This document shows, piece after piece, positions 2,329 through 61,452 of a DNA stretch of 64,000 nucleotides. A program made the position numbers and the translations under genes. Origin of the DNA: a virus (Duplodnaviria > Heunggongvirae > Uroviricota > Caudoviricetes). The stretch is taken from positions 12,132 to 76,131 of IMG/VR virus record IMGVR_UViG_2778261223_000007; one strand, 5' to 3'. The notes under the pieces were generated by a model that was not told the origin of the DNA, made no database searches, and worked only from the letters and a program-made list of their open reading frames with translations. The stretch's first letter is position 1. Each line of letters opens with the position of its first letter.

Positions 2329-3755
2329 CGATTACAGAATTACTGGACAAATTTAACGCCAAGTTAAATGAAAACACATGGTGGTCACGATTTGTAAATA
2401 GTCAGTTTGTGCAGATGCACGCTATATTCGGATCACAGCTTATTTATATTGCCCGTACATTTGCAAGCCGCGGCCTCACTGAGGGACTTATTTCAACGGC
2501 TACGCGCCGCTCAAGTATTTTAGCGGTTGCTGAAGACCGTAGCTACGTAGGGCGATTTGTTAGTGCTTCATACGGAACAACGTCTATAACCAATAAAACT
2601 GATCGGGATATTACGTTACCAGCCGGGGCTGAATTGCTTGCCAATGACCAAACACCTTTGGCAATTATTAACAGTGTTGTAATTCCTGCTGGAGGAACTG
2701 TTTCTGGCGTAGAAACTAAACAGCATGAAGCTGTTAGCGTTACATTTGATATTGAGAAGGAAACTTTATTTCTGACATTGTTGCTTTCCAGAGAATTAAC
2801 AAAAGAAGTCTCTAGCCTGGATGTTTATGTTATTACAGATGGCGTAGAAGAAAAATGGACATATAACCCATTATTTAGAATGTCCAGAGACAAGAGTAAG
2901 CACTATTCATTGGCATATAAACCTACAGAACAACTTGGAGTCAAGTTTGGTGATGGTTCTATGGGTATGATGCCTCCAGCAGGCTGTCAGGTTCGAATCG
3001 ATGTTATGGCTAGCCTTGGCGACTATACTTTGGCTGAAGGACAAAAGTTAGAACCGGCTGGAAATATCGCTCAATATGTGGAGTCACTAGAGTTTAAAAC
3101 TGATTCGATCATTACCGGTGGTAGTGGTATGGAAACTACAGAAGAAACTCGAAATCGTGCTCAGTATTATGTTGCATACGATGAACAAGTGGTATGGGGC
3201 GGTGATTATCGCCAATTCATTCAGAATGTTGTTCATGGAACTTCATGGTTGAACGTTTGGGGCGAAGCGTTGCAAGAGAAAATAACTGGGTTTGACGTTC
3301 GAAACATCAACAAGATTTTCTTTTGCGGACATAAGCCAGGTGTAAGCCAGGCTCAGCTAAAATCAGAAATACTGAAAGCTCTAGAGAATGTTCCAAATGA
3401 GTTGAACAAGCGGTTTGAGTATGTAGATACAAATGAACAACCATTTACTATAATATTTACAGGTATTGCACGTAAAAATGTTCTGATAGACGACGCTCAA
3501 AATGCTATTAAAGCAGCGTTGGAAGAAAATTTTGGTCGTGATTCGTCATCATTCAGTTTATTACTACAGAGTGATGATGATTCTCAGCAATGTTATGCAC
3601 AGGTAAAAGTTAAAGATATTTGGCGAGTAATAGAGTCGCTGGATATGTTTCTCTCTTATGACATAACAATACAAAATATGAAAGATGCAGTTTACTTTAA
3701 TGACTTCATTTATCTTGACGTGAAATCTTCAACGTTCAGCATTTCTTACCCGTAA
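2325..3755 (+). CDS. baseplate J-like protein
   Basis: 476 aa, GTG start overlapping upstream stop (translational coupling); W-J-I-fibre gene order typical of myovirus baseplate modules. Confidence 0.4.
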   Translation: MTITELLDKFNAKLNENTWWSRFVNSQFVQMHAIFGSQLIYIARTFASRGLTEGLISTATRRSSILAVAEDRSYVGRFVSASYGTTSITNKTDRDITLPAGAELLANDQTPLAIINSVVIPAGGTVSGVETKQHEAVSVTFDIEKETLFLTLLLSRELTKEVSSLDVYVITDGVEEKWTYNPLFRMSRDKSKHYSLAYKPTEQLGVKFGDGSMGMMPPAGCQVRIDVMASLGDYTLAEGQKLEPAGNIAQYVESLEFKTDSIITGGSGMETTEETRNRAQYYVAYDEQVVWGGDYRQFIQNVVHGTSWLNVWGEALQEKITGFDVRNINKIFFCGHKPGVSQAQLKSEILKALENVPNELNKRFEYVDTNEQPFTIIFTGIARKNVLIDDAQNAIKAALEENFGRDSSSFSLLLQSDDDSQQCYAQVKVKDIWRVIESLDMFLSYDITIQNMKDAVYFNDFIYLDVKSSTFSISYP

Positions 3756-3765
3756 TGAGGTTAGC

Positions 3766-4611
3766 ATGAAAGATAATTGGCTTAAGGAACGATTAACTAA
3801 AGTAAAACAGGATTCACATCTCTGGAGTGCATTTATAGACGCTTTACAGGATGTCTGGAATGAGGCAGTAGAACCAATATTAACAAGAATAAGTAACAGA
3901 AAATCCTTCTTCACTATGGACAGTGAGGACATGGATGCCCGCATTGCTGAATACGGGCGTTTTTTCGTTATCACTGAAAAAGATAAGGCTCGTAGGCCAA
4001 TGCTGCTGGCACAACGTTTAGATGAAGTGCACTTTAAAGGCACTATCTTGCCAATTGAGCAGACATTCTGGCGTGAATTCGGTTGTATTCCTGTTAGTTG
4101 GGAACCGCTGTATGCACCTGTAAATATAGAAAAACACCCCTATGGTTCATATTTTGCGACCGAAATAGAAATACCTACGGCACAGGCTCAATTCGGTGAG
4201 TTCTTCCTGACATCAAGGGGGCTGGTCGTTGTTGATCAGAACAAGCTATATCGCTCATATGGAGAGCAGGATAAAGAAGCCGCTGTACAGAAATTGTTAT
4301 CTGACTTCGAAACAGTAATAGCCCCTTTATTGCCATTGCATATTGTTTTTGATGGCGTCTCGTTTCGGCTTAGTGCTGTATTCCCTGAAGTGGCAGAAAT
4401 ACTAAATTGCTTGTCTACGGATGTTTCGGTAATTGAAGGTGTTTATGTTACTGAGAGTATGGCTGATATGCTATCCCGTAGTGATACCTCCTGCCAGGTA
4501 GACAATATTTCTCTTAACGCCATACCGAACCGAACGGCAGAAAAGCAATTACATCTTGATGTAACCCCACTCGATGCGTGGCCTTTGGATTACCACCTTC
4601 AACCTGTTTAA
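3766..4611 (+). CDS. baseplate/tail protein (I-like)
   Basis: 281 aa ORF with ATG start, between J-like gene and fibre genes; hairpin follows the stop. Confidence 0.35.
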   Translation: MKDNWLKERLTKVKQDSHLWSAFIDALQDVWNEAVEPILTRISNRKSFFTMDSEDMDARIAEYGRFFVITEKDKARRPMLLAQRLDEVHFKGTILPIEQTFWREFGCIPVSWEPLYAPVNIEKHPYGSYFATEIEIPTAQAQFGEFFLTSRGLVVVDQNKLYRSYGEQDKEAAVQKLLSDFETVIAPLLPLHIVFDGVSFRLSAVFPEVAEILNCLSTDVSVIEGVYVTESMADMLSRSDTSCQVDNISLNAIPNRTAEKQLHLDVTPLDAWPLDYHLQPV

Positions 4612-11420: not shown

Positions 11421-11525
11421 ATGTCCCCCCTTGTATGTTAAGGGGGGAGATTCTAGAAGATGTCCTGTAAGGAAATAACAAACTGACTAAGTTAGTGGCG
11501 CATTAGATGTTATTTCTGGAGGGGT

Positions 11526-11852: not shown

Positions 11853-12298
11853 TGGGTAACTTTGGAAATTATTTCATTTTTATCATGGCATTTGTTGCCA
11901 TCATTGACCGTTTCATTTTTCGTCGCAAGAGTGTTGAGATTTTGAGTATTGGTGACGCTGTAGTGAAAGAATCCGCTATAGCATTTCCTGTTTCGCTACG
12001 TGTTAAGCGAAGCTGGGTGAGCAATGCTCAAATCGAATATTGGTTGCAAGACCTGAAAAATCCATCTGTGGTTATTTCAGGGAAAACGCGACCAGTTGAC
12101 GCCTCAAAACGCGGTGAGAGAGAAGAGTATTTGCTCATCGATACGAAATATCTTGAGCCAACGAAGTGGGATCTGAAAGTCACATTGACTAACGGTAACT
12201 GCCGACTGAATCCGCTTTATCGCATTTTCCCTATCAATGACTGCATAGAGCGCCAATTTACGATCGAAAAGCGTGAAGGAGACTGGGATGTCAAATAA
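11852..12298 (+). CDS. membrane-anchored protein (P1 LydB-like by position and size)
   Basis: 148 aa, N-terminal hydrophobic helix; start overlaps upstream stop. Confidence 0.35.
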   Translation: MGNFGNYFIFIMAFVAIIDRFIFRRKSVEILSIGDAVVKESAIAFPVSLRVKRSWVSNAQIEYWLQDLKNPSVVISGKTRPVDASKRGEREEYLLIDTKYLEPTKWDLKVTLTNGNCRLNPLYRIFPINDCIERQFTIEKREGDWDVK

Positions 12299-14838: not shown

Positions 14839-15212
14839 TGACTATCTCTGTTTTAGACCGTCTGAAATTGGGTAAAGAGCTATCAGATTTAATGCAGGCG
14901 CAGAAAACCGCGCCAGTATTACAACGCGTCGCCATTGGTAAGCAGATTGTCGATCTGATGCTTAAACTGGGGTTGGGTACTGCCGCTCAACCGATGTCGG
15001 AACCGCAACCACAACCACAGTCTGATCCTGTTGCAGATGAAGTTCCTAAGATAGTGACTGACTTCCTGGGCGGCGTGTTCACAAAGTCCACACAAATGGA
15101 ATTTATTGATGCGCTGCGTGGGATCTCAAACTATGTTGGTGAGTTCCTTACGTTGGAGCAGGCTAAAGAGCAGACCATAAGCTGGGTGAAAGCCAACGGT
15201 TATGCCGGGTAA
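14838..15212 (+). CDS. hypothetical protein (DdrA-like position)
   Basis: 124 aa, ATG overlaps upstream stop; hairpin after stop. Confidence 0.35.
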   Translation: MTISVLDRLKLGKELSDLMQAQKTAPVLQRVAIGKQIVDLMLKLGLGTAAQPMSEPQPQPQSDPVADEVPKIVTDFLGGVFTKSTQMEFIDALRGISNYVGEFLTLEQAKEQTISWVKANGYAG

Positions 15213-15294: not shown

Positions 15295-16671
15295 TTGGAG
15301 TGTATTTTGAACAAATCAGTTACTTCTGCGCTTTCCGAGGCCGCAGATATTAACAGCGTCATTGCTCTGGTTTCTTCATTAGAGAGGAAAGAAACACGCC
15401 TGGGGCGAAGTAGCTACGTAGTCACCAGCAAAGGTGCAGAGGTAAAGACGGCTTTTAAGGTCGTTGATGCCAGCAGTCTGATCATTTCGAACAACCTTGA
15501 CGGTACGATTAACCCGGCCTTCCCGGAAGAACTCCAACCACGAGATCGTACCCGGCTATCCAGCAAACTCCAGGTTAACCGTATTGCCTCCGATTTACGC
15601 CCGGCACAATTAACGGATTCCGGTATGAGCAGCCACGGAGCGCCGATAGTTGGTCCGGACAACGTTGTTGAATCCGGCAACGGAAGGAGTATGGGTATCT
15701 GGCGTGCCTATGAGCAAGGACAGGCGGATGAGTATCGCCAGTACCTGATCGACCATGCGAAAGAGTTTGGTCTGAATCCTGACGAAATTTCGCAAATGTC
15801 TATGCCCGTACTGGTGCGAGAAAGACTCACAGATGTAGACCGCGCTCAATTTGCCCGCGATTCAAACATTAGCGATCTGCAAGAGATGGCAGCAAGTGAA
15901 AAAGCGTATGCGGATGCGCAATTTCTCACTGAGAGCGTCATGGCGCTATTTAATCCTTCAGATGATGGAAATCTGCTGGCGCGGTCCAATGATGCGTTTA
16001 TTCGTGCGTTTTTGCGCGAAATTGGCGATACAGCGACGGCAGGCTTGCTTACTGCCGATGGGCGTCCCACGAAACAGCTTATCGATCGCATCCAGAATGC
16101 AATTTTTGCCAAAGCGTACAAGGATGAAAGGCTTGTTCGGCTGGTGTCGGAAGAGCCAGATCCGGAAATGCGTAATATCCTGATCGCATTAAATACGGCA
16201 GCCAGCGATTTTGCGCAAATGCAGTCGCTGTCTGGCGATGTTCACCATGACACGGTAACCGGACTGGTAGACGGTATAGAGCAATTGAATGGTCTGGATA
16301 AACAGGCTATTGCAGCGCTACAGGAAGCAATTAACCTTGTTCGTGAAGCAAAAGATAACGGTCAGGCAGTAGAAGAGGTGATCGCACAGCGTGGATTGTT
16401 TGGAGATAGCACTCCGGAAGCAGAAGCGCTTGCTCTGTTTATTGTTGCCAACAACCGAAGCGCTAAGCGAATGGGGGCCGCTTTCAAGAAACTGGCGCAA
16501 AAAATTAACGATGAACTTATTCACCAACAACAAGCGTTAGGCGATATGTTCGGCGGCGGAGATGTCGATCTGCGTAGCATTTTATCTGCCGTTTCTGATG
16601 AAATTGAGACTGAGTTTGGCGAAGGTAAAGGGTTAATTTTTTCTATGTTTGAGCCAACCTCTGTTGGGTAA
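15295..16671 (+). CDS. hypothetical protein (DdrB-like position); start uncertain (TTG)
   Basis: 458 aa open frame; no ATG near the 5' end. Confidence 0.35.
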   Translation: MECILNKSVTSALSEAADINSVIALVSSLERKETRLGRSSYVVTSKGAEVKTAFKVVDASSLIISNNLDGTINPAFPEELQPRDRTRLSSKLQVNRIASDLRPAQLTDSGMSSHGAPIVGPDNVVESGNGRSMGIWRAYEQGQADEYRQYLIDHAKEFGLNPDEISQMSMPVLVRERLTDVDRAQFARDSNISDLQEMAASEKAYADAQFLTESVMALFNPSDDGNLLARSNDAFIRAFLREIGDTATAGLLTADGRPTKQLIDRIQNAIFAKAYKDERLVRLVSEEPDPEMRNILIALNTAASDFAQMQSLSGDVHHDTVTGLVDGIEQLNGLDKQAIAALQEAINLVREAKDNGQAVEEVIAQRGLFGDSTPEAEALALFIVANNRSAKRMGAAFKKLAQKINDELIHQQQALGDMFGGGDVDLRSILSAVSDEIETEFGEGKGLIFSMFEPTSVG

Positions 16672-16796
16672 CATCAATGTAACTTAATGCTCTTTCTGTG
16701 CGTTCATCACATATCTGAAGATGGGCGCATAATTCATTTTTGTTCCTGTTTAATAATATGTAAACTAGCTGAAAATATAATGAATGAGGATAACCG

Positions 16797-17354
16797 ATGT
16801 CATCATTTACAGATTTGGTTTCAGCTCTTGCATGGCCATTGGTGTTTGTGTGGTTTGTTAATAAGTATGGGGTTGATATTAAGGAGTTAATAGTACGTCT
16901 GAGTAGATTCAAGATTGGAGTAGCTGAAGCTGAGTTTAATGCGGGACTAACCGCAGCAGAAGTATTAGCAACAGATGCATCAGTTGGGAATAGAAATATT
17001 AACAATGGTAATAATAACTCTGAATATATAAATAAAATCGCACAATTAGAGAGAATTGCTGATTTTTCACCTAGAGCTGCTATTATGGAGTCATGGTTGA
17101 TGGTAGAGGAGGCTGCCGGGCGCTCTGGTTTTATACAGGGAGGGTTAAAGCCGAAACGGAATCCAGAACTATTCATTGACTGGTTGATTCAAGAAGGAAA
17201 ACTTGAAGATTCCGCTGCTTTGCTGTTAAAACGGCTTCGCTCGCTAAGAAATGAAGCCGCGCACTTTCTGGATTTTGAAATCACCAGAAATGAAGCTGAA
17301 CGCTATATAAGACTTGCAGCGAAGGTTTCACAACTTATTGTTGATCCAGATTAG
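16797..17354 (+). CDS. membrane-anchored protein with C-terminal HEPN-like Rx4H motif (candidate toxin/abortive-infection protein)
   Basis: 185 aa; N-terminal hydrophobic helix LVSALAWPLVFVWFV; C-terminal LRSLRNEAAHF fits Rx4-6H; lies in a visibly AT-rich island. Confidence 0.45.
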   Translation: MSSFTDLVSALAWPLVFVWFVNKYGVDIKELIVRLSRFKIGVAEAEFNAGLTAAEVLATDASVGNRNINNGNNNSEYINKIAQLERIADFSPRAAIMESWLMVEEAAGRSGFIQGGLKPKRNPELFIDWLIQEGKLEDSAALLLKRLRSLRNEAAHFLDFEITRNEAERYIRLAAKVSQLIVDPD

Positions 17355-17398
17355 TTTTACTTACTTAGCTTTGATAATTTATAACATGGAGTATAGTT

Positions 17399-17731
17399 AT
17401 GAGAAATATAATCCTGGTTTGTGCTTTATTAGCTTCTGCATCAGTTTGTGCTGCGCCCTATAAGATAAAAATCCCTTCTGATCCAAAAGCTACTTATACA
17501 GTGCTGGATATTGGTCGTGAAGGTGAATATAAAACTATCATTACAAAAAGGGAAGGCCCATCTGGGACAGCATATTCGAAGAGAATATATAATTGCATGA
17601 CAAATGAAGTGAAGTATCTTGGTTCTGGGGAGACGCTTGAACAGATGAAAAATTCAAAACCTGATCCCAAAATGGGGGGGATTGTAAGTGGTTCCATCGC
17701 TGACTATGTGGGCAGGGAAGCGTGTAAGTAA
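17399..17731 (+). CDS. small secreted/periplasmic protein
   Basis: 110 aa with signal peptide MRNIILVCALLASASVCAAP; AT-rich island, downstream of the HEPN-like gene. Confidence 0.45.
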   Translation: MRNIILVCALLASASVCAAPYKIKIPSDPKATYTVLDIGREGEYKTIITKREGPSGTAYSKRIYNCMTNEVKYLGSGETLEQMKNSKPDPKMGGIVSGSIADYVGREACK

Positions 17732-17815
17732 TCATTAACAGCACCAATAAAACTCTCCTATCAAATCACATACTGATTATGCTGCCGCAAAACTGGAAAC
17801 AATTTGCGGTGATTC

Positions 17816-19498
17816 ATGGCAACGAAAGACAAAAACAAAGGCTTTCTGTCAGCATTGAAGAAAGCCTTCAACGGTGGTGATGTTACGCCCGCCGATCCGG
17901 TCGTTTTTACGAGCGGGCATAGTGTCGTTGCTCGTTCCGGCCTGTCTGCTTTACGTCCAGGTATACTGGGGAGCAACAGCGATGGCATGACGAGTGCAGC
18001 AGATTCAATTTCTTTATCCGCTGAACTGCCCGGCGAGCGCCTGCAAAAGTACAACATCCTGGAAACGATGGCTAAAAGCCCGACTATCTCGACGGCTTTA
18101 AACATTCACATTGCACATGCGCTTGCGCCTTCAAAAAAAACCGGACAAGCATTCATCCTTTCGCCAAAGGATGGTTCCGATGCTGAGGCAGTAAGTAGAT
18201 GTGAAGAGTTAACCGCTGATTTGGGGGCGATGATTAATGACGGACTTCCTTCATGGGCCATGATTATGGCTATCTTTGGGGTGTCTTATGTCCGACCTTA
18301 TGCTGAACAGGGCAGGGGGATAACAGGCATTGAGTCCAGTTATTACACTCTGCCACACTTCGTCCAGGAGTTTTATCGTGGTAGCCAGCTGGTAGGTTTC
18401 AGTGGTGATTACATTCTGGATACGCATAGTTTGCGCAGAGTAATAACCGAACCGTGGAATCTGGTTTCCATGAAAAATCCCTATTGGACGCCACAGCATA
18501 AAGTTATTCCGGTTAGCTACGGCACAAAAGGGTACTCACTGTTAAGTGATCAGGCTGATAAGCCGTTAATGGAGACGCAGAATTACGGAACTTCATTCCT
18601 GGAATACAGCTATGAACCTTACCTTAATTTATGTGCTTCGCTCGCCGCGCTGAAATCAACGCGAAATAATGCAGCCAAAATTGACCGCCTGATTGCTCTT
18701 ACGACGAACACACTGGACCCGGTTAATGCGGCGAACTATACGCGTGGCGTCAGCCAGGCATTGAAGCGTCATAGTGACCTGGTGGCGCAAAGGTCGATTA
18801 ATGCCAACGCTATTCCGACTGTGCTTAACCATCTGATACCTGTTATGGGAGACGGGAAGAACGGCATCACCATTGATACGCAATCCATACCCGCAGATAT
18901 CAGTGGTATCGAAGACGTTATGTTTCACCTCCGGCAGCTTGCTGCAAGCCTCGGCATTGACGCAACAATGCTTGGCTGGGCTGATCAGATGAGCGGAGGG
19001 CTTGGAGAAGGCGGCTGGCAGCAAACTGCTATCCAGGCTGCATTGCGTGCGAACTGGATCAGACAGGCCGCCCAGCGAACTATTTATCGGCTTCTGGACA
19101 TTCACCTCGCTTATAAATACGGCAAGGTTTACACCGAAACAAACCGCCCTTATGACGTGCAATTCAACTCAATGAACACTGCTATCCAGGAAGAGGAAAA
19201 CCGAGAACTGGATGCACGCGCCAACTTTGTTGCTGTCATCTCCCAAATTATGGACCAGATCCAGAACAACCCGAAACTGGCTGGTAGCGACGCGTTTATG
19301 CGTTATCTGTTCACTGAGCAGTTGCACATCGACGATGACACTCTCAACACCATGATCAAAGAGTTTAAGGCGAATGAATCAGAGCAAAACAACGAGCATG
19401 GTATGTACGAATCCGCGCCGTTGTCGTCCGGTGACGATCCGGAAAACTGGACGCCAGAACAGTTAATAAACTTTGCAAAATTTGTGATGAGCAATTAA
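17816..19498 (+). CDS. phage structural protein, possibly portal (P1 Prt-like by size)
   Basis: 560 aa ORF followed 14 bp later by a 332-aa ORF; assignment by size and arrangement only. Confidence 0.3.
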   Translation: MATKDKNKGFLSALKKAFNGGDVTPADPVVFTSGHSVVARSGLSALRPGILGSNSDGMTSAADSISLSAELPGERLQKYNILETMAKSPTISTALNIHIAHALAPSKKTGQAFILSPKDGSDAEAVSRCEELTADLGAMINDGLPSWAMIMAIFGVSYVRPYAEQGRGITGIESSYYTLPHFVQEFYRGSQLVGFSGDYILDTHSLRRVITEPWNLVSMKNPYWTPQHKVIPVSYGTKGYSLLSDQADKPLMETQNYGTSFLEYSYEPYLNLCASLAALKSTRNNAAKIDRLIALTTNTLDPVNAANYTRGVSQALKRHSDLVAQRSINANAIPTVLNHLIPVMGDGKNGITIDTQSIPADISGIEDVMFHLRQLAASLGIDATMLGWADQMSGGLGEGGWQQTAIQAALRANWIRQAAQRTIYRLLDIHLAYKYGKVYTETNRPYDVQFNSMNTAIQEEENRELDARANFVAVISQIMDQIQNNPKLAGSDAFMRYLFTEQLHIDDDTLNTMIKEFKANESEQNNEHGMYESAPLSSGDDPENWTPEQLINFAKFVMSN

Positions 19499-19511: not shown

Positions 19512-20510
19512 ATGCAATCACTGAATACTGTTACGGATCGCTTCTCCCTGGTAGAGAAAATCCGCAAACACACACCGCAGAACAACCGAAATTACGTCAT
19601 TCAGTCGGTACGAGACACATTCAACTCGCCAGAAACAAAAGAGCGTATCGCGCTGGGTGAGATGTATGGTTATTACGGTCATGGTCGCCGGGCGATGCAC
19701 TATAACAAAACGAAAAGCCTGAACTTGCCGGAAGTCTCTGTTGTGATGGTAGATGGGAAGCCTGTTGTATTGGAGAACGTGCCGTCAAACAGGACTATCG
19801 ACATTTCGATTGACGACAACGGCATTGTTACGCATACGCAGGAAATACTGGATACAGACACCGGGCGTATTGTTCAGGGCATGATTAATTCTGGTGCTGG
19901 TGGTTGGTCGTGGGCTACATCTGGTCCAGATTCATCGGTATCCCTGGTAAAGTCTTTCCACGGCTTTGATTACGTAACTGTGCCTAACTATATCAGCCTC
20001 GACAAGAAAAGCCTGATGCTTGAATCAGCAGAAGAGCGCGATGCGGCTATTCATGCAGCACTTATCGAACAAGGTTTTACCGATAACGCTGCTACGGATC
20101 TGGTTCACCACTTTTCAGCAATGAAAAATCAGCAAGCCATGCTCGAATCTGCACATCGTGAAGCCCTGGAATCAGAATTGATGCTCCTTGAAGTGGAAAA
20201 CATACAGCTTCGAGATAAGCTGCGCGCTCAAACAGCGATGATGGAAAGCCAGGGGGAAAATGCAAAGCAATGCCGCCGGATTTTGCGTGACGCTATCCAG
20301 GAAATGCCTGTTTTTATCAGCGCAGAACAGCGCCGGGCGCTTTGCCGTATGCAGTCTGAAGATGATGCCCGCATAGTGGCTGCGATGCTTGAATCTCTTG
20401 GGGCAAATGCTACTTATGGCTTACCGGTATCAGGCAAGAAAGAACCAGAGTTATCACCGAAGGAGAACAAAAACACCACCCCGTTACTCTTCGTTTCTAG
20501 AAGGGGGTGA
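19512..20510 (+). CDS. phage protein, possibly prohead protease/scaffold (P1 Pro-like by size)
   Basis: 332 aa; coiled-coil C-terminal half; RBS GGAGGG upstream. Confidence 0.3.
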   Translation: MQSLNTVTDRFSLVEKIRKHTPQNNRNYVIQSVRDTFNSPETKERIALGEMYGYYGHGRRAMHYNKTKSLNLPEVSVVMVDGKPVVLENVPSNRTIDISIDDNGIVTHTQEILDTDTGRIVQGMINSGAGGWSWATSGPDSSVSLVKSFHGFDYVTVPNYISLDKKSLMLESAEERDAAIHAALIEQGFTDNAATDLVHHFSAMKNQQAMLESAHREALESELMLLEVENIQLRDKLRAQTAMMESQGENAKQCRRILRDAIQEMPVFISAEQRRALCRMQSEDDARIVAAMLESLGANATYGLPVSGKKEPELSPKENKNTTPLLFVSRRG

Positions 20511-22311: not shown

Positions 22312-23018
22312 TGGATATCTGCATTCTTGAAAAGCCATCAATGACCAGCATTGAGATCGCGGAGCTGGTGGGAAAACGTCATGACAATGTGAAGCGTACC
22401 ATTGAAACATTAGCCGAATCCGGCGTTATTGTTCGTCCTCAAATTGAGGATGAACCAAAAATAGATGTAATGGGGCGTTCTCGATTAATTCAGGTGTTCC
22501 GATTTAGCGACGAGCAAGGCAAACGAGACAGCATCATTGTAGTCGCACAGCTTTGTCCTGAGTTTACTGCCCGGCTGGTGGACCGCTGGCGCGAACTGGA
22601 AGAACAAGTACGCCAGCCGTTGACCGAAATAGAGATGATCGCCGCAATGGCTGCAAATGCAGTTCAGCAGCAAAAGCGGCTTCATGCTGTTGAGTCAAAG
22701 GTTAGCCAGGTCGCTGAAACCGTCGAGCAAATCAAGAAGGGCAATATGCCAGATGGCTACATTGGCTACCGCCAGCTGGCGGCGAAATGTGGCCTGACCG
22801 AAGCCAAATGCCGTAACCTGGTTAACGCTTACCGGATTCCCACCGATACACATGAGTTTTTAACTCCAGAGGGGGTATTGTCGCGTCGTTCCATCGTGGC
22901 CTTATCTCCCTTCATGAATGCTTTTAACCGGATGATGTCGGAGGCTGAACACCGAGGAAAACGCTGGTATCACCCCAAAATGGGGCAATTCCAGGTGATC
23001 GGTTGGGGAGGTGAGTGA
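22311..23018 (+). CDS. antirepressor, Rha-family N-terminal domain
   Basis: 235 aa; MTSIEIAELVGKRHDNVKRTIE matches the phage Rha regulatory-protein signature; paralog of 58495..59421. Confidence 0.6.
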   Translation: MDICILEKPSMTSIEIAELVGKRHDNVKRTIETLAESGVIVRPQIEDEPKIDVMGRSRLIQVFRFSDEQGKRDSIIVVAQLCPEFTARLVDRWRELEEQVRQPLTEIEMIAAMAANAVQQQKRLHAVESKVSQVAETVEQIKKGNMPDGYIGYRQLAAKCGLTEAKCRNLVNAYRIPTDTHEFLTPEGVLSRRSIVALSPFMNAFNRMMSEAEHRGKRWYHPKMGQFQVIGWGGE

Positions 23019-58495: not shown

Positions 58496-59421
58496 TGAAT
58501 CTGTCCATCTCTCAAAAAGCGACAATGACCAGCATTGAGATCGCGGAACTGGTAGGTAAGCGCCCTGATAACGTTAAACGCACCATTGAACACCTGGCGG
58601 AACGGGGCGTAATATCTTTTCCTCAAATTGAGGAAAAGCCCACCGCAGGCCGCCCGGCGAGCTATTACGTCTTTGAAGGCGAACAAGGCAAGCGTGACAG
58701 TATCATTGTCGTCGCACAGCTTTCTCCCGAATTTACCGCCCGGCTGGTGGACCGCTGGCGCGAACTGGAGAATGCCCGGGTACAGTTAAAATCAAAAGCC
58801 GAAATCCTGGCTGAAATGGCGCAAATGCATCTTGAGCATGAACGCCGGATCAACGCCGTTAATGCCCAGGTAGCCGAAGTATCGGCACAAGTGTCCAAAG
58901 TCGCTGAAACCGTCGAGCAAATCAAGAAAGGCAATATTCCGGAAGGCTACATTGGCTACCGCCAGCTGGCGGCGAAATGTGGCCTGACTGAAGCCAAATG
59001 CCGAAACCTGGTTAACGCTTACCGGATTCCCACCGATACGCATGAGTTTTTAACTCCCGATGGTTTGCTTGCGCAACGCTCCATTGTGGCCCTGGCCCCC
59101 TTCCGGAAAGCCTTTAAGCAGGTGATGTCGGAGGCAGAACCACGCAATAAACGCTGGTATCATCCAAAGATGGGGATGTTTCAGGCAATCCACCATCCTG
59201 TGCCTGAAAGTCCAAAGGCAAACCTGTCGTTGCATACCGCCAGAGAGAGGATTAAAACAGGCTATGCAATCGTATGCCGTCGAGCATCCTGGCCTGAAGG
59301 TGTATGGGTGTGGCCCGAAGGTGGATCACGAAAGCACTGGCGCACTATCCGGGATGGGAAAATCCATGCGATTGATTTAGCTCCAGAGGATGTTGTTGCT
59401 ACGGACTGGATTGTTAGTTAA
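58495..59421 (+). CDS. antirepressor: Rha-family N-terminal domain fused to DUF2829-like C-terminal domain
   Basis: 308 aa; N-terminus MTSIEIAELVGKRPDNVKRTIE; C-terminus YAIVCRRASW...DLAPEDVVATDWIVS corresponds to the separate ORF 23015..23215 of module 1. Confidence 0.6.
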   Translation: MNLSISQKATMTSIEIAELVGKRPDNVKRTIEHLAERGVISFPQIEEKPTAGRPASYYVFEGEQGKRDSIIVVAQLSPEFTARLVDRWRELENARVQLKSKAEILAEMAQMHLEHERRINAVNAQVAEVSAQVSKVAETVEQIKKGNIPEGYIGYRQLAAKCGLTEAKCRNLVNAYRIPTDTHEFLTPDGLLAQRSIVALAPFRKAFKQVMSEAEPRNKRWYHPKMGMFQAIHHPVPESPKANLSLHTARERIKTGYAIVCRRASWPEGVWVWPEGGSRKHWRTIRDGKIHAIDLAPEDVVATDWIVS

Positions 59422-59480
59422 TTACTGTTGCCCCGGCCTGTCCGGGGCTTTAACTACTAAATAACCGGATTCTCCGCACG

Positions 59481-59765
59481 ATGAAGAAAATAGATTTCAC
59501 TTACTCTGCTGCCACAATCCAGCGACGTTTCAGTCTCATAAGGGAAGTGGAACTATCAAAAAACTGCTATCAAATTCTACTGGATGAAGAGTTTTCACTG
59601 ATGGTTATAGCAGAAAAATTGGCTATGCCGAATGACCGGCACAAGGTCATAGCCAGCCTGGATCTGGTGACAAACAGATACTGGGAATACGAGGAACTAC
59701 TTGAAGTTGGCTTGATACGCGAGATGATAGAACAGGCTGTTCCCCTCCACTTACAGCAACCATAA
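59481..59765 (+). CDS. hypothetical protein
   Basis: 94 aa. Confidence 0.35.
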   Translation: MKKIDFTYSAATIQRRFSLIREVELSKNCYQILLDEEFSLMVIAEKLAMPNDRHKVIASLDLVTNRYWEYEELLEVGLIREMIEQAVPLHLQQP

Positions 59766-59901
59766 TTGAAAGATCTTAACGATAGTCTGCCACGAATAGT
59801 TACTTCCACTGCCTAAAGTTATTTAATTGCATTACAAAGTGTAAATTAGTAACATTAGAATCTCACACAGCACTATAACTATATGTTTTTTATGTAAAAG
59901 G

Positions 59902-60261
59902 ATGATAATCGTGGCTACTAAAATTAAACTTGAAAACCCTCAAACTGGCGAATCAATCACCGGTTTTTATGGTTTTTCCTGGACTACATTCTTGTTTGGT
60001 GCTTTTCCAGCTTTGTTCAGGAAAGACTTTATAACTTTTATTGGGGTATTTGTAGTGATGCTGATACTGGCATTCCTCACAGCCGGAATTGGCCCGTGGA
60101 TTGCCTCATTTATCTGGGCGTTCATGTATAATAAATATTTCACCGTAAATAAGATAAAACAAGGCTTCATTTTTGCTGGTTCTCACACAGAAAATGAGTT
60201 GGCTGCTAGCAAGCTAGGATTGTCATTAAATCAAAACAACTGCAAAACTATTACCGAGTAA
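59902..60261 (+). CDS. small inner-membrane protein (candidate superinfection-exclusion-type moron)
   Basis: 119 aa with 2-3 hydrophobic helices; AT-rich surroundings. Confidence 0.4.
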   Translation: MIIVATKIKLENPQTGESITGFYGFSWTTFLFGAFPALFRKDFITFIGVFVVMLILAFLTAGIGPWIASFIWAFMYNKYFTVNKIKQGFIFAGSHTENELAASKLGLSLNQNNCKTITE

Positions 60262-60300
60262 AGCCAAAAAGCAGGCTTAATAGTAAGCCTGCTATGTCAA

Positions 60301-61134
60301 TCACGAATCTCTCTGACAATTCAGAAACATAAACGCCCGCTTGTCTGTTAAATCCGTAACATAATACTCTCTCATGCCTGTAGGTTTTATTCTACGAGCA
60401 TATACAAACTTATGAACTGGTTGTTTTTCCCCATAACTTACATCAGTCCTAAATTCATCAACCACGCTACCATCTTTTTCAGTTTCCTTTCTCACTAGCT
60501 GATTTTCTAATACAGGCTTTGATTCGTCCATGCCACTAAAAGCATCCTGACCTGTGCTGTTGCCTCGGTTTCCGCGTGGCAAATCCCATGAAAAATAAGT
60601 GCCATAGTCAGTAATCACACGATCCCATGTTCCGGAATCCCCCATATAGTTAGAACGCTCCCCCTTGTAAGTTACAGCCACCTTACAGGCATACGTTTCA
60701 CCATTATTTTTTTTATCATGTCCAGCCATGCTTGCAGGAGTTGCAGGGGAATTATGAATAGATGCGCTTACATCATCTTGCGTTAATTTCTCAACTGGAG
60801 CAAATTCATATATGGGTGTGCCGAGGCTATTTAAATATAACTTATATCTAACCCTAAGCGCACTTCCATCTGAGAATTCATACGTTCCCAGGCATTGGAG
60901 CTTATTGTTTTCTCTTATCTCATTGATCTGATTATAAGCATCAATTACAGAGATTGCTTCCTGCTCGTCCTTCAGCAGTTCATTATAATCATCGATTAAC
61001 ATCTGCCTAGTTTTAGGGGAATTGCAGTCAATTTTGCTAAAATCATAAGCAAAGGTGAGTGTGGGAACAAAAAGAGCAACAACAGTAGCTAGTATTGTTG
61101 AGGAAAATCTTTTTCCATTTTTTATAAAAAACAT
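60301..61134 (-). CDS. secreted protein / putative lipoprotein, hypothetical
   Basis: 277 aa from ATG with GGAG RBS; signal-peptide-like N-terminus; AT-rich gene. Confidence 0.4.
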   Translation of the reverse strand: MFFIKNGKRFSSTILATVVALFVPTLTFAYDFSKIDCNSPKTRQMLIDDYNELLKDEQEAISVIDAYNQINEIRENNKLQCLGTYEFSDGSALRVRYKLYLNSLGTPIYEFAPVEKLTQDDVSASIHNSPATPASMAGHDKKNNGETYACKVAVTYKGERSNYMGDSGTWDRVITDYGTYFSWDLPRGNRGNSTGQDAFSGMDESKPVLENQLVRKETEKDGSVVDEFRTDVSYGEKQPVHKFVYARRIKPTGMREYYVTDLTDKRAFMFLNCQRDS

Positions 61135-61427
61135 TTCATTAACTCCATACCTTACCATCTTAGCCGCGAGCGCGGTCCCTAAAACCATTAACTTCACTGC
61201 ACCGTCCTTCATGCAATCAAAATGACTTTTATGTTATAAAAATAATCAGCCAAATCAACATGATTTAGGCCAAATTTCTGTCAAAAAATAAAATCCACAA
61301 AAAGTGGTTGACACTATTTTGGAAATCACAAACTGCACATAATCCATCGCGCTAACGGCTCCCGTTGAAGGTTCTTTTGACGATTAACTTTCAGCCGAAG
61401 CGCGGTAGGGAGTCATAACGCCAAAGC

Positions 61428-61452
61428 AGGCCGCCATGTGCGGCCTTTTTTT
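61428..61452 (+). terminator. rho-independent terminator
   Basis: AGGCCGC-CATGT-GCGGCCT followed by TTTTTTT; no plus-strand CDS directly upstream. Confidence 0.55.

Follow-up and report, generated by a model that had tools for sequence, protein, structure and literature searches.

This analysis concerns a 1.1-kb AT-rich segment within a 64,000-nt stretch of a Caudoviricetes virus (IMG/VR record IMGVR_UViG_2778261223_000007, positions 12,132 to 76,131; the whole stretch is referred to below as the window), and the two genes that it carries, orf24 and orf23. Between positions 15200 and 19600 the window matches Escherichia phage D6 at 99.9% identity; D6 is a P1-like plasmid prophage that is maintained as a low-copy plasmid. 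In the RefSeq record of D6, the product of orf24 (YP_009914701) is named "DUF4145 domain-containing protein", and that of orf23 (YP_009914700) is a hypothetical protein. The evidence presented below supports the view that the segment is cargo, acquired horizontally and inserted at a hotspot between the ddrB and portal genes of the phage-plasmid D6, and identifies orf24, with high confidence, as a membrane-anchored HEPN protein of the group in which a transmembrane (TM) helix with a Trp-Pro signature (WP-TM) is combined with a DUF4145-type domain. The insert and its two genes are as follows:

16653..17762 (no strand): AT-rich moron island of 1.1 kb, an accessory insert separating ddrB from the portal gene, recognised by its GC content and by alignment to the empty site of NZ_CP027309
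16797..17354 (+): D6 orf24, 185 aa, very probably a membrane-anchored HEPN protein (DUF4145-type); Shine-Dalgarno sequence GAGGA at 16786-16790
17399..17731 (+): D6 orf23, 110 aa, predicted exported protein, best described as an independent prophage moron; Shine-Dalgarno sequence GGAG at 17388-17391

An earlier interpretation of this DNA, made from its letters and open reading frames (ORFs) and referred to here as the sequence-only reading, had placed two ORFs at these coordinates, and both appear to be genuine genes, each with a good Shine-Dalgarno sequence. It had also placed them between a darA-like operon and structural genes, which agrees with the flanks: upstream lies a lydA-lydB-hdf-darA-ddrA-ddrB block, closed by a ddrB homolog (PF18763, E 3e-42), and downstream lie the portal gene (prt) and then pro. 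The visible AT-richness was confirmed by a GC comparison. The insert has a GC content of 38.4%, while the window mean is 47.3% (standard deviation (SD) 3.3% for segments of the same size), i.e. it lies 2.7 SD lower, and only 0.5% of same-size windows are as GC-poor. The GC content at third codon positions is 0.31 for orf24 and 0.32 for orf23, as compared with 0.47 for ddrB and 0.52 for the portal gene, and thus deviates from both flanking genes. Two other stretches of the window equal the island in AT-richness (GC 38-40% in 1.1-kb windows), namely ~2551-4540, which contains baseplate genes (homologs of P1 gene 16 and bplA), and ~59351-61440, which contains simB-orf80-pmgF-ant.

The breakpoints of the insert were set by alignment to island-free relatives, with NZ_CP027309 as the empty site, in which the portal gene starts 64 bp after the ddrB stop codon. 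They fall after position 16652 and before position 17763, and therefore D6 ddrB ends, with its final six codons and stop, on the island side. This island-side end (16653-16671, …EPTSVG and stop) replaces about 13 different C-terminal codons of the island-free relatives, hence the insertion remodelled the C-terminus of ddrB. A query spanning the empty junction was contiguous in 93 of 118 D6-like plasmids, and the island is carried by about 14-16 of about 118. In a megablast search of PLSDB, the complete island was found with at least 99.5% identity in 12 D6-like plasmids, which come from E. coli and Salmonella, and ~87 other plasmids share just the final 53 bp ahead of the portal gene. Two pSa1423 plasmids of Salmonella sp. 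(NZ_MK356557/8; loci L003 and L004) match the island at 91-95%; they were not used as variants because their fragmented coding sequence (CDS) calls suggest assembly errors. In these two records the CDS are fragmented throughout, as is typical of uncorrected long-read assemblies, and one fragment is mis-named 'poly(3-hydroxybutyrate) depolymerase'. Among 5426 complete E. coli genomes the island was present in 9, every time on a plasmid, and the Salmonella carriers include D6-like prophages of S. Typhimurium ST213.

In other plasmids (L027, NZ_CP034790; L028, CP057742; L029, NZ_CP069647) the same slot is occupied by alternative cargo, namely a gene for a HicA toxin next to a 143-aa ORF, one for an XRE-family regulator accompanied by a small partner ORF, or the insertion sequence IS200/IS605 (tnpA/tnpB), and for this reason the ddrB-portal junction is regarded as a cargo hotspot. 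In P1, hxr (encoding an Xre homolog) is listed beside ddrB, with IS1 genes adjoining (PMC10695390). The sequence-only reading had suggested a horizontally acquired moron and a check of its presence or absence in related genomes. This check showed that the island is not conserved across all relatives: it is polymorphic at a fixed site between conserved genes, it is present in a minority of D6-like plasmids and its composition is deviant, all of which bears the suggestion out.

The following features were recognised along orf24 and directly upstream of it:

16706..16733 (+): weak candidate sigma-70-like promoter upstream of orf24 (ATCACA-16-CATAAT; 9/12 matches in a consensus scan)
16803..16859 (+): predicted N-terminal TM helix (aa 3-21) with the W13-P14 signature at 16833-16838, from hydropathy and conservation
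16860..16976 (+): conserved juxtamembrane helix (aa 22-60) with an RLS..K...EAEF motif and invariant F47, from an AlphaFold2 (AF2) model and alignment
16977..17015 (+): variable Asn-rich linker, predicted to be disordered (aa 61-73), with a predicted local distance difference test score (pLDDT) <50 at residues 64-72; both its length and its sequence vary
17016..17342 (+): HEPN helical-bundle domain (aa 74-182) with a conserved SPRAAxxExWxxxE block (S91-E104)
17247..17264 (+): predicted catalytic motif R151-N-E-A-A-H156 (Rx4H, in the RNxxxH form), from conservation, shuffled sequences and equivalence to RAZR

The N-terminal TM helix noticed in the sequence-only reading is well supported. The best 19-residue Kyte-Doolittle window of orf24 comprises residues 3-21 and has a mean of 1.63 (family mean 1.81), and W13 and P14 are invariant in 37/37 homologs of the conservation alignment, the members of which extend down to 25% identity. 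The 20 residues following the helix contain 5.1 K/R against 2.0 D/E and the net charge on its N-side is -0.65; given this positive-inside bias, an N-out/C-in topology is predicted, which would place the HEPN domain on the cytoplasmic side of the inner membrane. In the AF2 model residues 2-60 form a single continuous helix, and the juxtamembrane part of it may take part in oligomerisation or in transferring a signal.

A search of 5.8 billion proteins retrieved 103 homologs of orf24, of which the nearest outside D6-like elements are ~58% identical and originate from Serratia, Klebsiella, Salmonella, Cronobacter and Pantoea. Concerning the family assignment, the expected match to DUF4145 was obtained in part. 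Most homologs (50-59% identity) have a precomputed PF13643 match, flagged 'weak' in the loci examined; D6 orf24 itself scores 19.9 bits (E 8e-4, covering model positions 4-85 of 88), that is below the gathering threshold of 23.1. There is also a weak Pfam match to HEPN_RiboL-PSP across the motif helix. The only NCBIfam match was weak and local, to the N-terminus of type I HsdR (E 0.036); it fits DUF4145 and adds nothing. A search of the PDB with the family profile returned only a marginal match to HepS (E 0.2).

The sequence-only reading had based its HEPN proposal on an Rx4-6H segment. A bare motif of this kind is uninformative, because it is present in 34/51 long ORFs of the window and in 19% of shuffled orf24 sequences. 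The orf24 motif is nevertheless meaningful, because H156 is the sole histidine of the protein, the RNxxxH form appears in 0.5% of the shuffles and R151, N152 and H156 are near-invariant. Invariant positions of the alignment are W13, P14, F47, S91-P-R-A-A95, E98, W100, E104, R151, A154, F160 and Y170; at N152 and H156 the residue is shared by at least 90% of the members. The all-alpha helical-bundle fold of HEPN domains was found in orf24, and together with the conservation of RNxxxH down to 25% identity and the family context this upholds the HEPN proposal. On the opposite strand (16643-17176) a 177-aa ORF overlaps orf24; it is most likely spurious, since it is unannotated in both D6 records and a conserved protein family is encoded on the plus strand.

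Neighbourhoods of orf24 relatives were compared in 92 loci (80 species-representative genomes and 12 viral contigs). No conserved neighbouring gene family was found, the largest neighbour cluster occurring in 4/85 loci. The contexts themselves are diverse. A Cronobacter homolog shares its island with genes for a TIR protein, AbiTii, ApeA and resolvases, and a Salmonella homolog resides in an element resembling integrative and conjugative elements (ICE-like), beside an integrase. The homologs of Klebsiella and Raoultella are carried by satellites resembling phage-inducible chromosomal islands (PICI-like), in an accessory slot after the D5-type primase, and some of these satellites are capsid-forming. 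In Vibrio and Photobacterium the homologs are integron cassettes flanked by arrays of Vibrio cholerae repeat (VCR)/attC-like repeats (TAACAAA...GCGTTA), which in Photobacterium are ~0.7 kb apart and so leave space for one gene. Compact anti-phage systems, often consisting of a single gene, are known to abound in integron cassettes. orf24 is thus a stand-alone unit, found where defence genes and mobile elements reside.

Several details of these loci deserve mention. The largest neighbour cluster corresponds to a 175-aa cytoplasmic helical ORF of the closest enterobacterial clade; this ORF is absent from D6, lacks a signal peptide and matches neither a Pfam nor a PADLOC family. It lies directly downstream of the ~58%-identical homologs (Pantoea, S. 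arizonae and Serratia; L030:6699-7226, L031:807-1334, L112:6702-7226 and L009:6704-7231) and could be a clade-specific partner of them. In Salmonella, a 468-aa gene convergent with the orf24 homolog (L005:6660-8066, minus strand) contains the sequence RNWASAAH (Rx6H); its product may be another HEPN-like protein, and has no significant Pfam or PADLOC match. The PICI-like satellite of K. pneumoniae (L128-L131), which consists of int, alpA, the D5 primase gene and a ClpP-capsid fusion in addition to the orf24 homolog, appears to be inserted in the head-gene region of a lambdoid prophage, with portal and ClpP fragments on one side and ClpP-capsid, cement and tail genes on the other.

The second gene of the island, orf23, has the following parts:

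17399..17452 (+): Sec-type signal peptide (aa 1-18) with predicted cleavage at VCA|AP, from its n-h-c pattern
17453..17728 (+): mature domain (aa 19-110), a beta-sheet and two helices, with invariant C66 (17594-17596) and C109 (17723-17725)

The signal peptide, MRNIILVCALLASASVCA|AP, shows the typical Sec n-h-c pattern, in line with the sequence-only reading. Across the family the signal region is variable and the mature part is conserved, and in a few homologs a lipobox (VSAC, MSAC) takes the place of the signal peptide. The AF2 model has an overall pLDDT of 91.6, low for residues 1-20 and ~98 from residue 21. The protein belongs to phrog_13843 (unknown function), with 108 homologs and 689 clusters at 50% identity. 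No Pfam family matches it, and a PDB search with the family profile gave a spurious low-complexity match only. A DUF2511/YebY label, given to an orf23 homolog by one source, was rejected, as 0/34 family members match DUF2511 at E <=1. Where the domain is part of longer proteins, it comes after TM segments or is combined with SH3_3 or DUF4124, and it is therefore considered an extracytoplasmic module; the Pfam scan of these proteins revealed envelope-type modules (SH3_3 and DUF4124) only, with no enzymatic clue. A likeness to the H. influenzae surface-adhesin protein E (PDB 3zh5) is at fold level only (~10% sequence identity); unlike protein E, orf23 is predicted to be soluble and periplasmic rather than a lipoprotein, and an adhesin function has no support. 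orf23 is probably an exported, disulfide-bonded envelope protein, and is best described as an independent moron of the lysogenic-conversion or superinfection-exclusion type with no assignable activity.

The sequence-only reading had joined both genes into one system, composed of a HEPN protein and a secreted partner. The arrangement in D6 invites such a view, in which the membrane HEPN protein would have in the secreted one its sensor, antitoxin or partner: orf24 and orf23 are adjacent, co-oriented, separated by 44 bp and equally GC-poor, and they are inherited jointly, with at least 99.4% identity, in all island-bearing plasmids. The comparison of loci contradicts it. Among the 92 loci, orf23 stands beside an orf24 relative in one, which is the D6 copy itself, and in 0/91 of the others. 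Homologs of orf23 occur alone: Pseudomonas prophages have one downstream of the gene for a CI-type repressor, in siphovirus prophages of enterobacteria the gene stands between those for the tail chaperone and the tape measure, and Klebsiella phage Kp4856-1 also encodes one; conversely, orf24 homologs form attC-flanked cassettes, at least one of which, at ~0.7 kb, has space for a single gene. The predicted topologies also disagree with it, since an exported orf23 has no access to a HEPN domain in the cytoplasm, and orf24 is predicted to expose only about 2-6 residues to the periplasm. With co-occurrence, the lack of a conserved orf24 neighbour and the independent contexts of orf23 all against it, a two-component system is essentially excluded, and the two genes are best treated separately.

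What orf24 does can be approached by analogy with the single-gene HEPN defences RAZR, HepS, Tha and ApeA. On this basis we favour, with a probability of roughly 55%, a function as a stand-alone, membrane-tethered abortive-infection RNase that defends against other phages, the link with defence being provided by the Cronobacter TIR/AbiTii/ApeA island, the PICI-like satellites, the Salmonella ICE-like element and the integron cassettes. In such a model the WP-TM helix would anchor the protein in the inner membrane, and the juxtamembrane helix and flexible linker would hold the HEPN domain in the cytoplasm. The WP-TM and juxtamembrane helices would control oligomerisation, and a composite R151/H156 active site would form only once domains come together (as in RAZR, HepS, Tha and RNase L), so that the protein would be kept inactive in the lysogen. 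The trigger may be an infection-linked membrane event, such as genome injection, an inner-membrane protein of a phage or a loss of the membrane potential. Activated orf24 would then cleave tRNA, rRNA or mRNA, leading to cell arrest and abortion of the competitor's infection, to the benefit of the D6 lysogen population.

Several observations weigh against the defensive function. orf24 itself remains below the DUF4145 gathering threshold, and MtlR and YggD, which are non-catalytic HEPN-like proteins, are among its top structural matches. No PADLOC (2023) model matches orf24 (nor orf23, their homologs or the recurrent neighbours). Some homologs are located in ordinary chromosomal settings or islets (between nrdG and arsP in Serratia, and by dcd in a metagenomic locus). 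The periplasmic part is so small that sensing must take place within the membrane or at its inner face. Experimental work on WP-TM/DUF4145 proteins was not found in the literature, of which the Science 2025 integron-defence papers were outside the coverage. Finally, the expression signals are not those of an autonomous gene: the sigma-70-like sites of the region are not above chance (5, as compared with 3.8 +/- 2.3 in shuffles), and no terminator-like site was found in 16400-18000, which leaves the island not separated from the late darA/ddrB block or from the portal gene. Given the weak promoter and the lack of a terminator, orf24 may be transcribed mainly late in the lytic cycle of D6.

The latter point leads to a different explanation, namely that orf24 serves D6 itself as a late lytic function, e.g. 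as a membrane RNase for host RNA shut-off, lysis timing or superinfection exclusion. The gene has the same orientation as the flanking late-type genes; it lacks a convincing promoter of its own, and no terminator could be detected. However, most D6-like phage-plasmids do not carry it, so it is dispensable for the lytic cycle; its foreign composition marks it as recent cargo rather than a core function; and its homologs are common in non-phage settings (integron cassettes, defence islands, chromosomal islets and satellites), which makes a late function very unlikely. The structural resemblance to MtlR and YggD raises another question, i.e. whether the HEPN domain is a membrane-tethered, non-nuclease module that binds a ligand or protein for regulation. 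There is only a slight chance of this, since across very divergent homologs R151 never varies and N152 and H156 are retained in at least 90%, with H156 the only histidine of the protein, and since the DUF4145 RNase RAZR requires the same residues.

A role in conflicts between plasmids is also considered unlikely, if somewhat less so. Here orf24 would be an addiction toxin, acting in a manner similar to post-segregational killing, or an anti-plasmid or incompatibility factor like Ishtar, a DUF4145/HEPN anti-plasmid protein that causes loss of plasmid RP4. Such a role would suit the low-copy plasmid state of D6, the HicA toxin gene with its ORF and the XRE-type pair in the same slot of other plasmids, and the presence of one homolog in an ICE-like element. 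Against it, there is no antitoxin candidate: no gene for an MNT protein, as expected of a HEPN-MNT toxin-antitoxin system, adjoins orf24 (the neighbours are ddrB and orf23, with no NTase match), no small cytoplasmic partner is adjacent in D6, and no neighbour is conserved family-wide in the 85 loci. Moreover, the architecture of Ishtar differs (an N-terminal HEPN domain, a C-terminal beta-rich domain and no TM segment), and the satellite, defence-island and cassette contexts fit phage defence at least equally well. Abortive infection by a membrane-tethered RNase remains our preferred interpretation of orf24.

The sequence surrounding the island contains further features, two of which lie in the right flank:

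17763..17815 (+): portal-gene leader of 53 bp, outside the island, 100% identical in ~87 island-free plasmids
17785-17809 (+): hairpin CCGCAAA-N11-TTTGCGG in the portal leader, 6 nt upstream of the portal start codon

The hairpin may be a translational or processing signal for prt. No RNA family of Rfam was found in 16300-18100 on either strand. Upstream of lydA (11486-11514) there is a palindrome, ACTAAGTTAGT, followed 6 bp on by TTAGAT, and this layout is that expected of a P1-type Lpa-dependent late promoter. No significant copy of ACTAAGTTAGT was found near the island (8 matches as compared with 11 expected) or elsewhere in the window. Another palindrome, TCCTCAAATTGAGGA, has two perfect copies (22436-22450 and 58620-58634); with <=3 mismatches it has 8 matches in the window as compared with 2.1 expected, and no shuffle reached 8. 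It is absent near the island, and may be an operator or regulatory site of D6. Downstream of the portal gene, the product of D6 gene 106 (gp106; 19512-20510) is named 'tail fiber protein' in RefSeq, in conflict with the record's own note ('similar to P1 gene pro'); in GenBank MF356679 it is a head processing protease, and the RefSeq product name is probably erroneous.

It is tempting, though no more than tentative, to extend the interpretation of orf24 to its whole group, in which case WP-TM/DUF4145 proteins would be widespread single-protein immune sensors of membrane-level infection events, for instance genome injection, depolarisation or the insertion of phage membrane proteins; they would perceive these through the conserved WP-TM and juxtamembrane module and respond directly by activating the HEPN RNase through dimerisation. 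If this is true, they would represent a bacterial counterpart of the Ire1/RNase L logic, distributed on phage-plasmids, satellites, cassettes and defence islands. Single-gene HEPN defences (RAZR, HepS, Tha and ApeA) are now revealing how bacteria sense phage structural proteins, and the WP-TM/DUF4145 branch was predicted in 2013; the D6 copy is present in a genetically tractable E. coli phage-plasmid, for which island-free relatives offer natural controls. D6-like phage-plasmids with the ddrB-portal hotspot are common in E. coli and in the emerging S. Typhimurium ST213 lineage. A practical outcome of this study is the correction of the idea that orf24 and orf23 form one system.

Among known systems, the DUF4145 proteins with defensive roles offer the nearest functional parallels. 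RAZR (ring-activated zinc-finger RNase, PD-T7-4; Nature 2026) is an abortive-infection RNase composed of a zinc finger and a DUF4145 domain; it is activated by rings of phage portal or Gp77, it cleaves RNA, and the R and H of its HEPN motif are essential for defence (PMC13017515). Like orf24, as predicted here, it is a single gene with a DUF4145-type HEPN effector, and RAZR is activated by oligomerisation. RAZR is, however, soluble, with an N-terminal Cys4 zinc-finger sensor, whereas orf24 contains no cysteine and has a TM anchor instead; PADLOC includes the PD-T7 systems of E. coli, and orf24 matches none of its models. BxaP (DUF4145 and HEAT) is a further DUF4145 defence protein. HepS of Gifsy-1 and Tha of S. 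aureus prophages are likewise prophage-encoded single-gene HEPN defences, but they are soluble members of other HEPN families that sense tail proteins and, unlike orf24, have neither a TM anchor nor a WP domain.

The closest relationship is with proteins already defined computationally. Anantharaman et al. 2013 (Biol Direct 8:15) distinguished a DUF4145-overlapping group among 'bacterial membrane-associated HEPN domains', predicted the HEPN domain to be cytoplasmic, and suggested that the WP-TM segment senses cell-surface stimuli and controls RNA degradation. The analogy with Ire1 and RNase L, in which a HEPN RNase is under stimulus-driven dimerisation and, in Ire1, membrane-tethered, also comes from these authors; for orf24 it is an analogy only, as there is no kinase, no lumenal sensor and no homology outside the HEPN fold. 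With group 1 of the WP-TM and DUF4145 proteins (exemplar V. cholerae gi 153825856) orf24 shares the single N-terminal TM helix bearing a WP that is strictly conserved, and homologs of it are found in the integron cassettes of Vibrio and Photobacterium. The description of this group is computational only, and the D6 copy differs in being borne by a phage-plasmid and ~58% identical to its nearest chromosomal relatives. The architecture of orf24 is, consequently, one that has already been described in this computational way, and the D6 copy is a phage-plasmid-borne member of the group.

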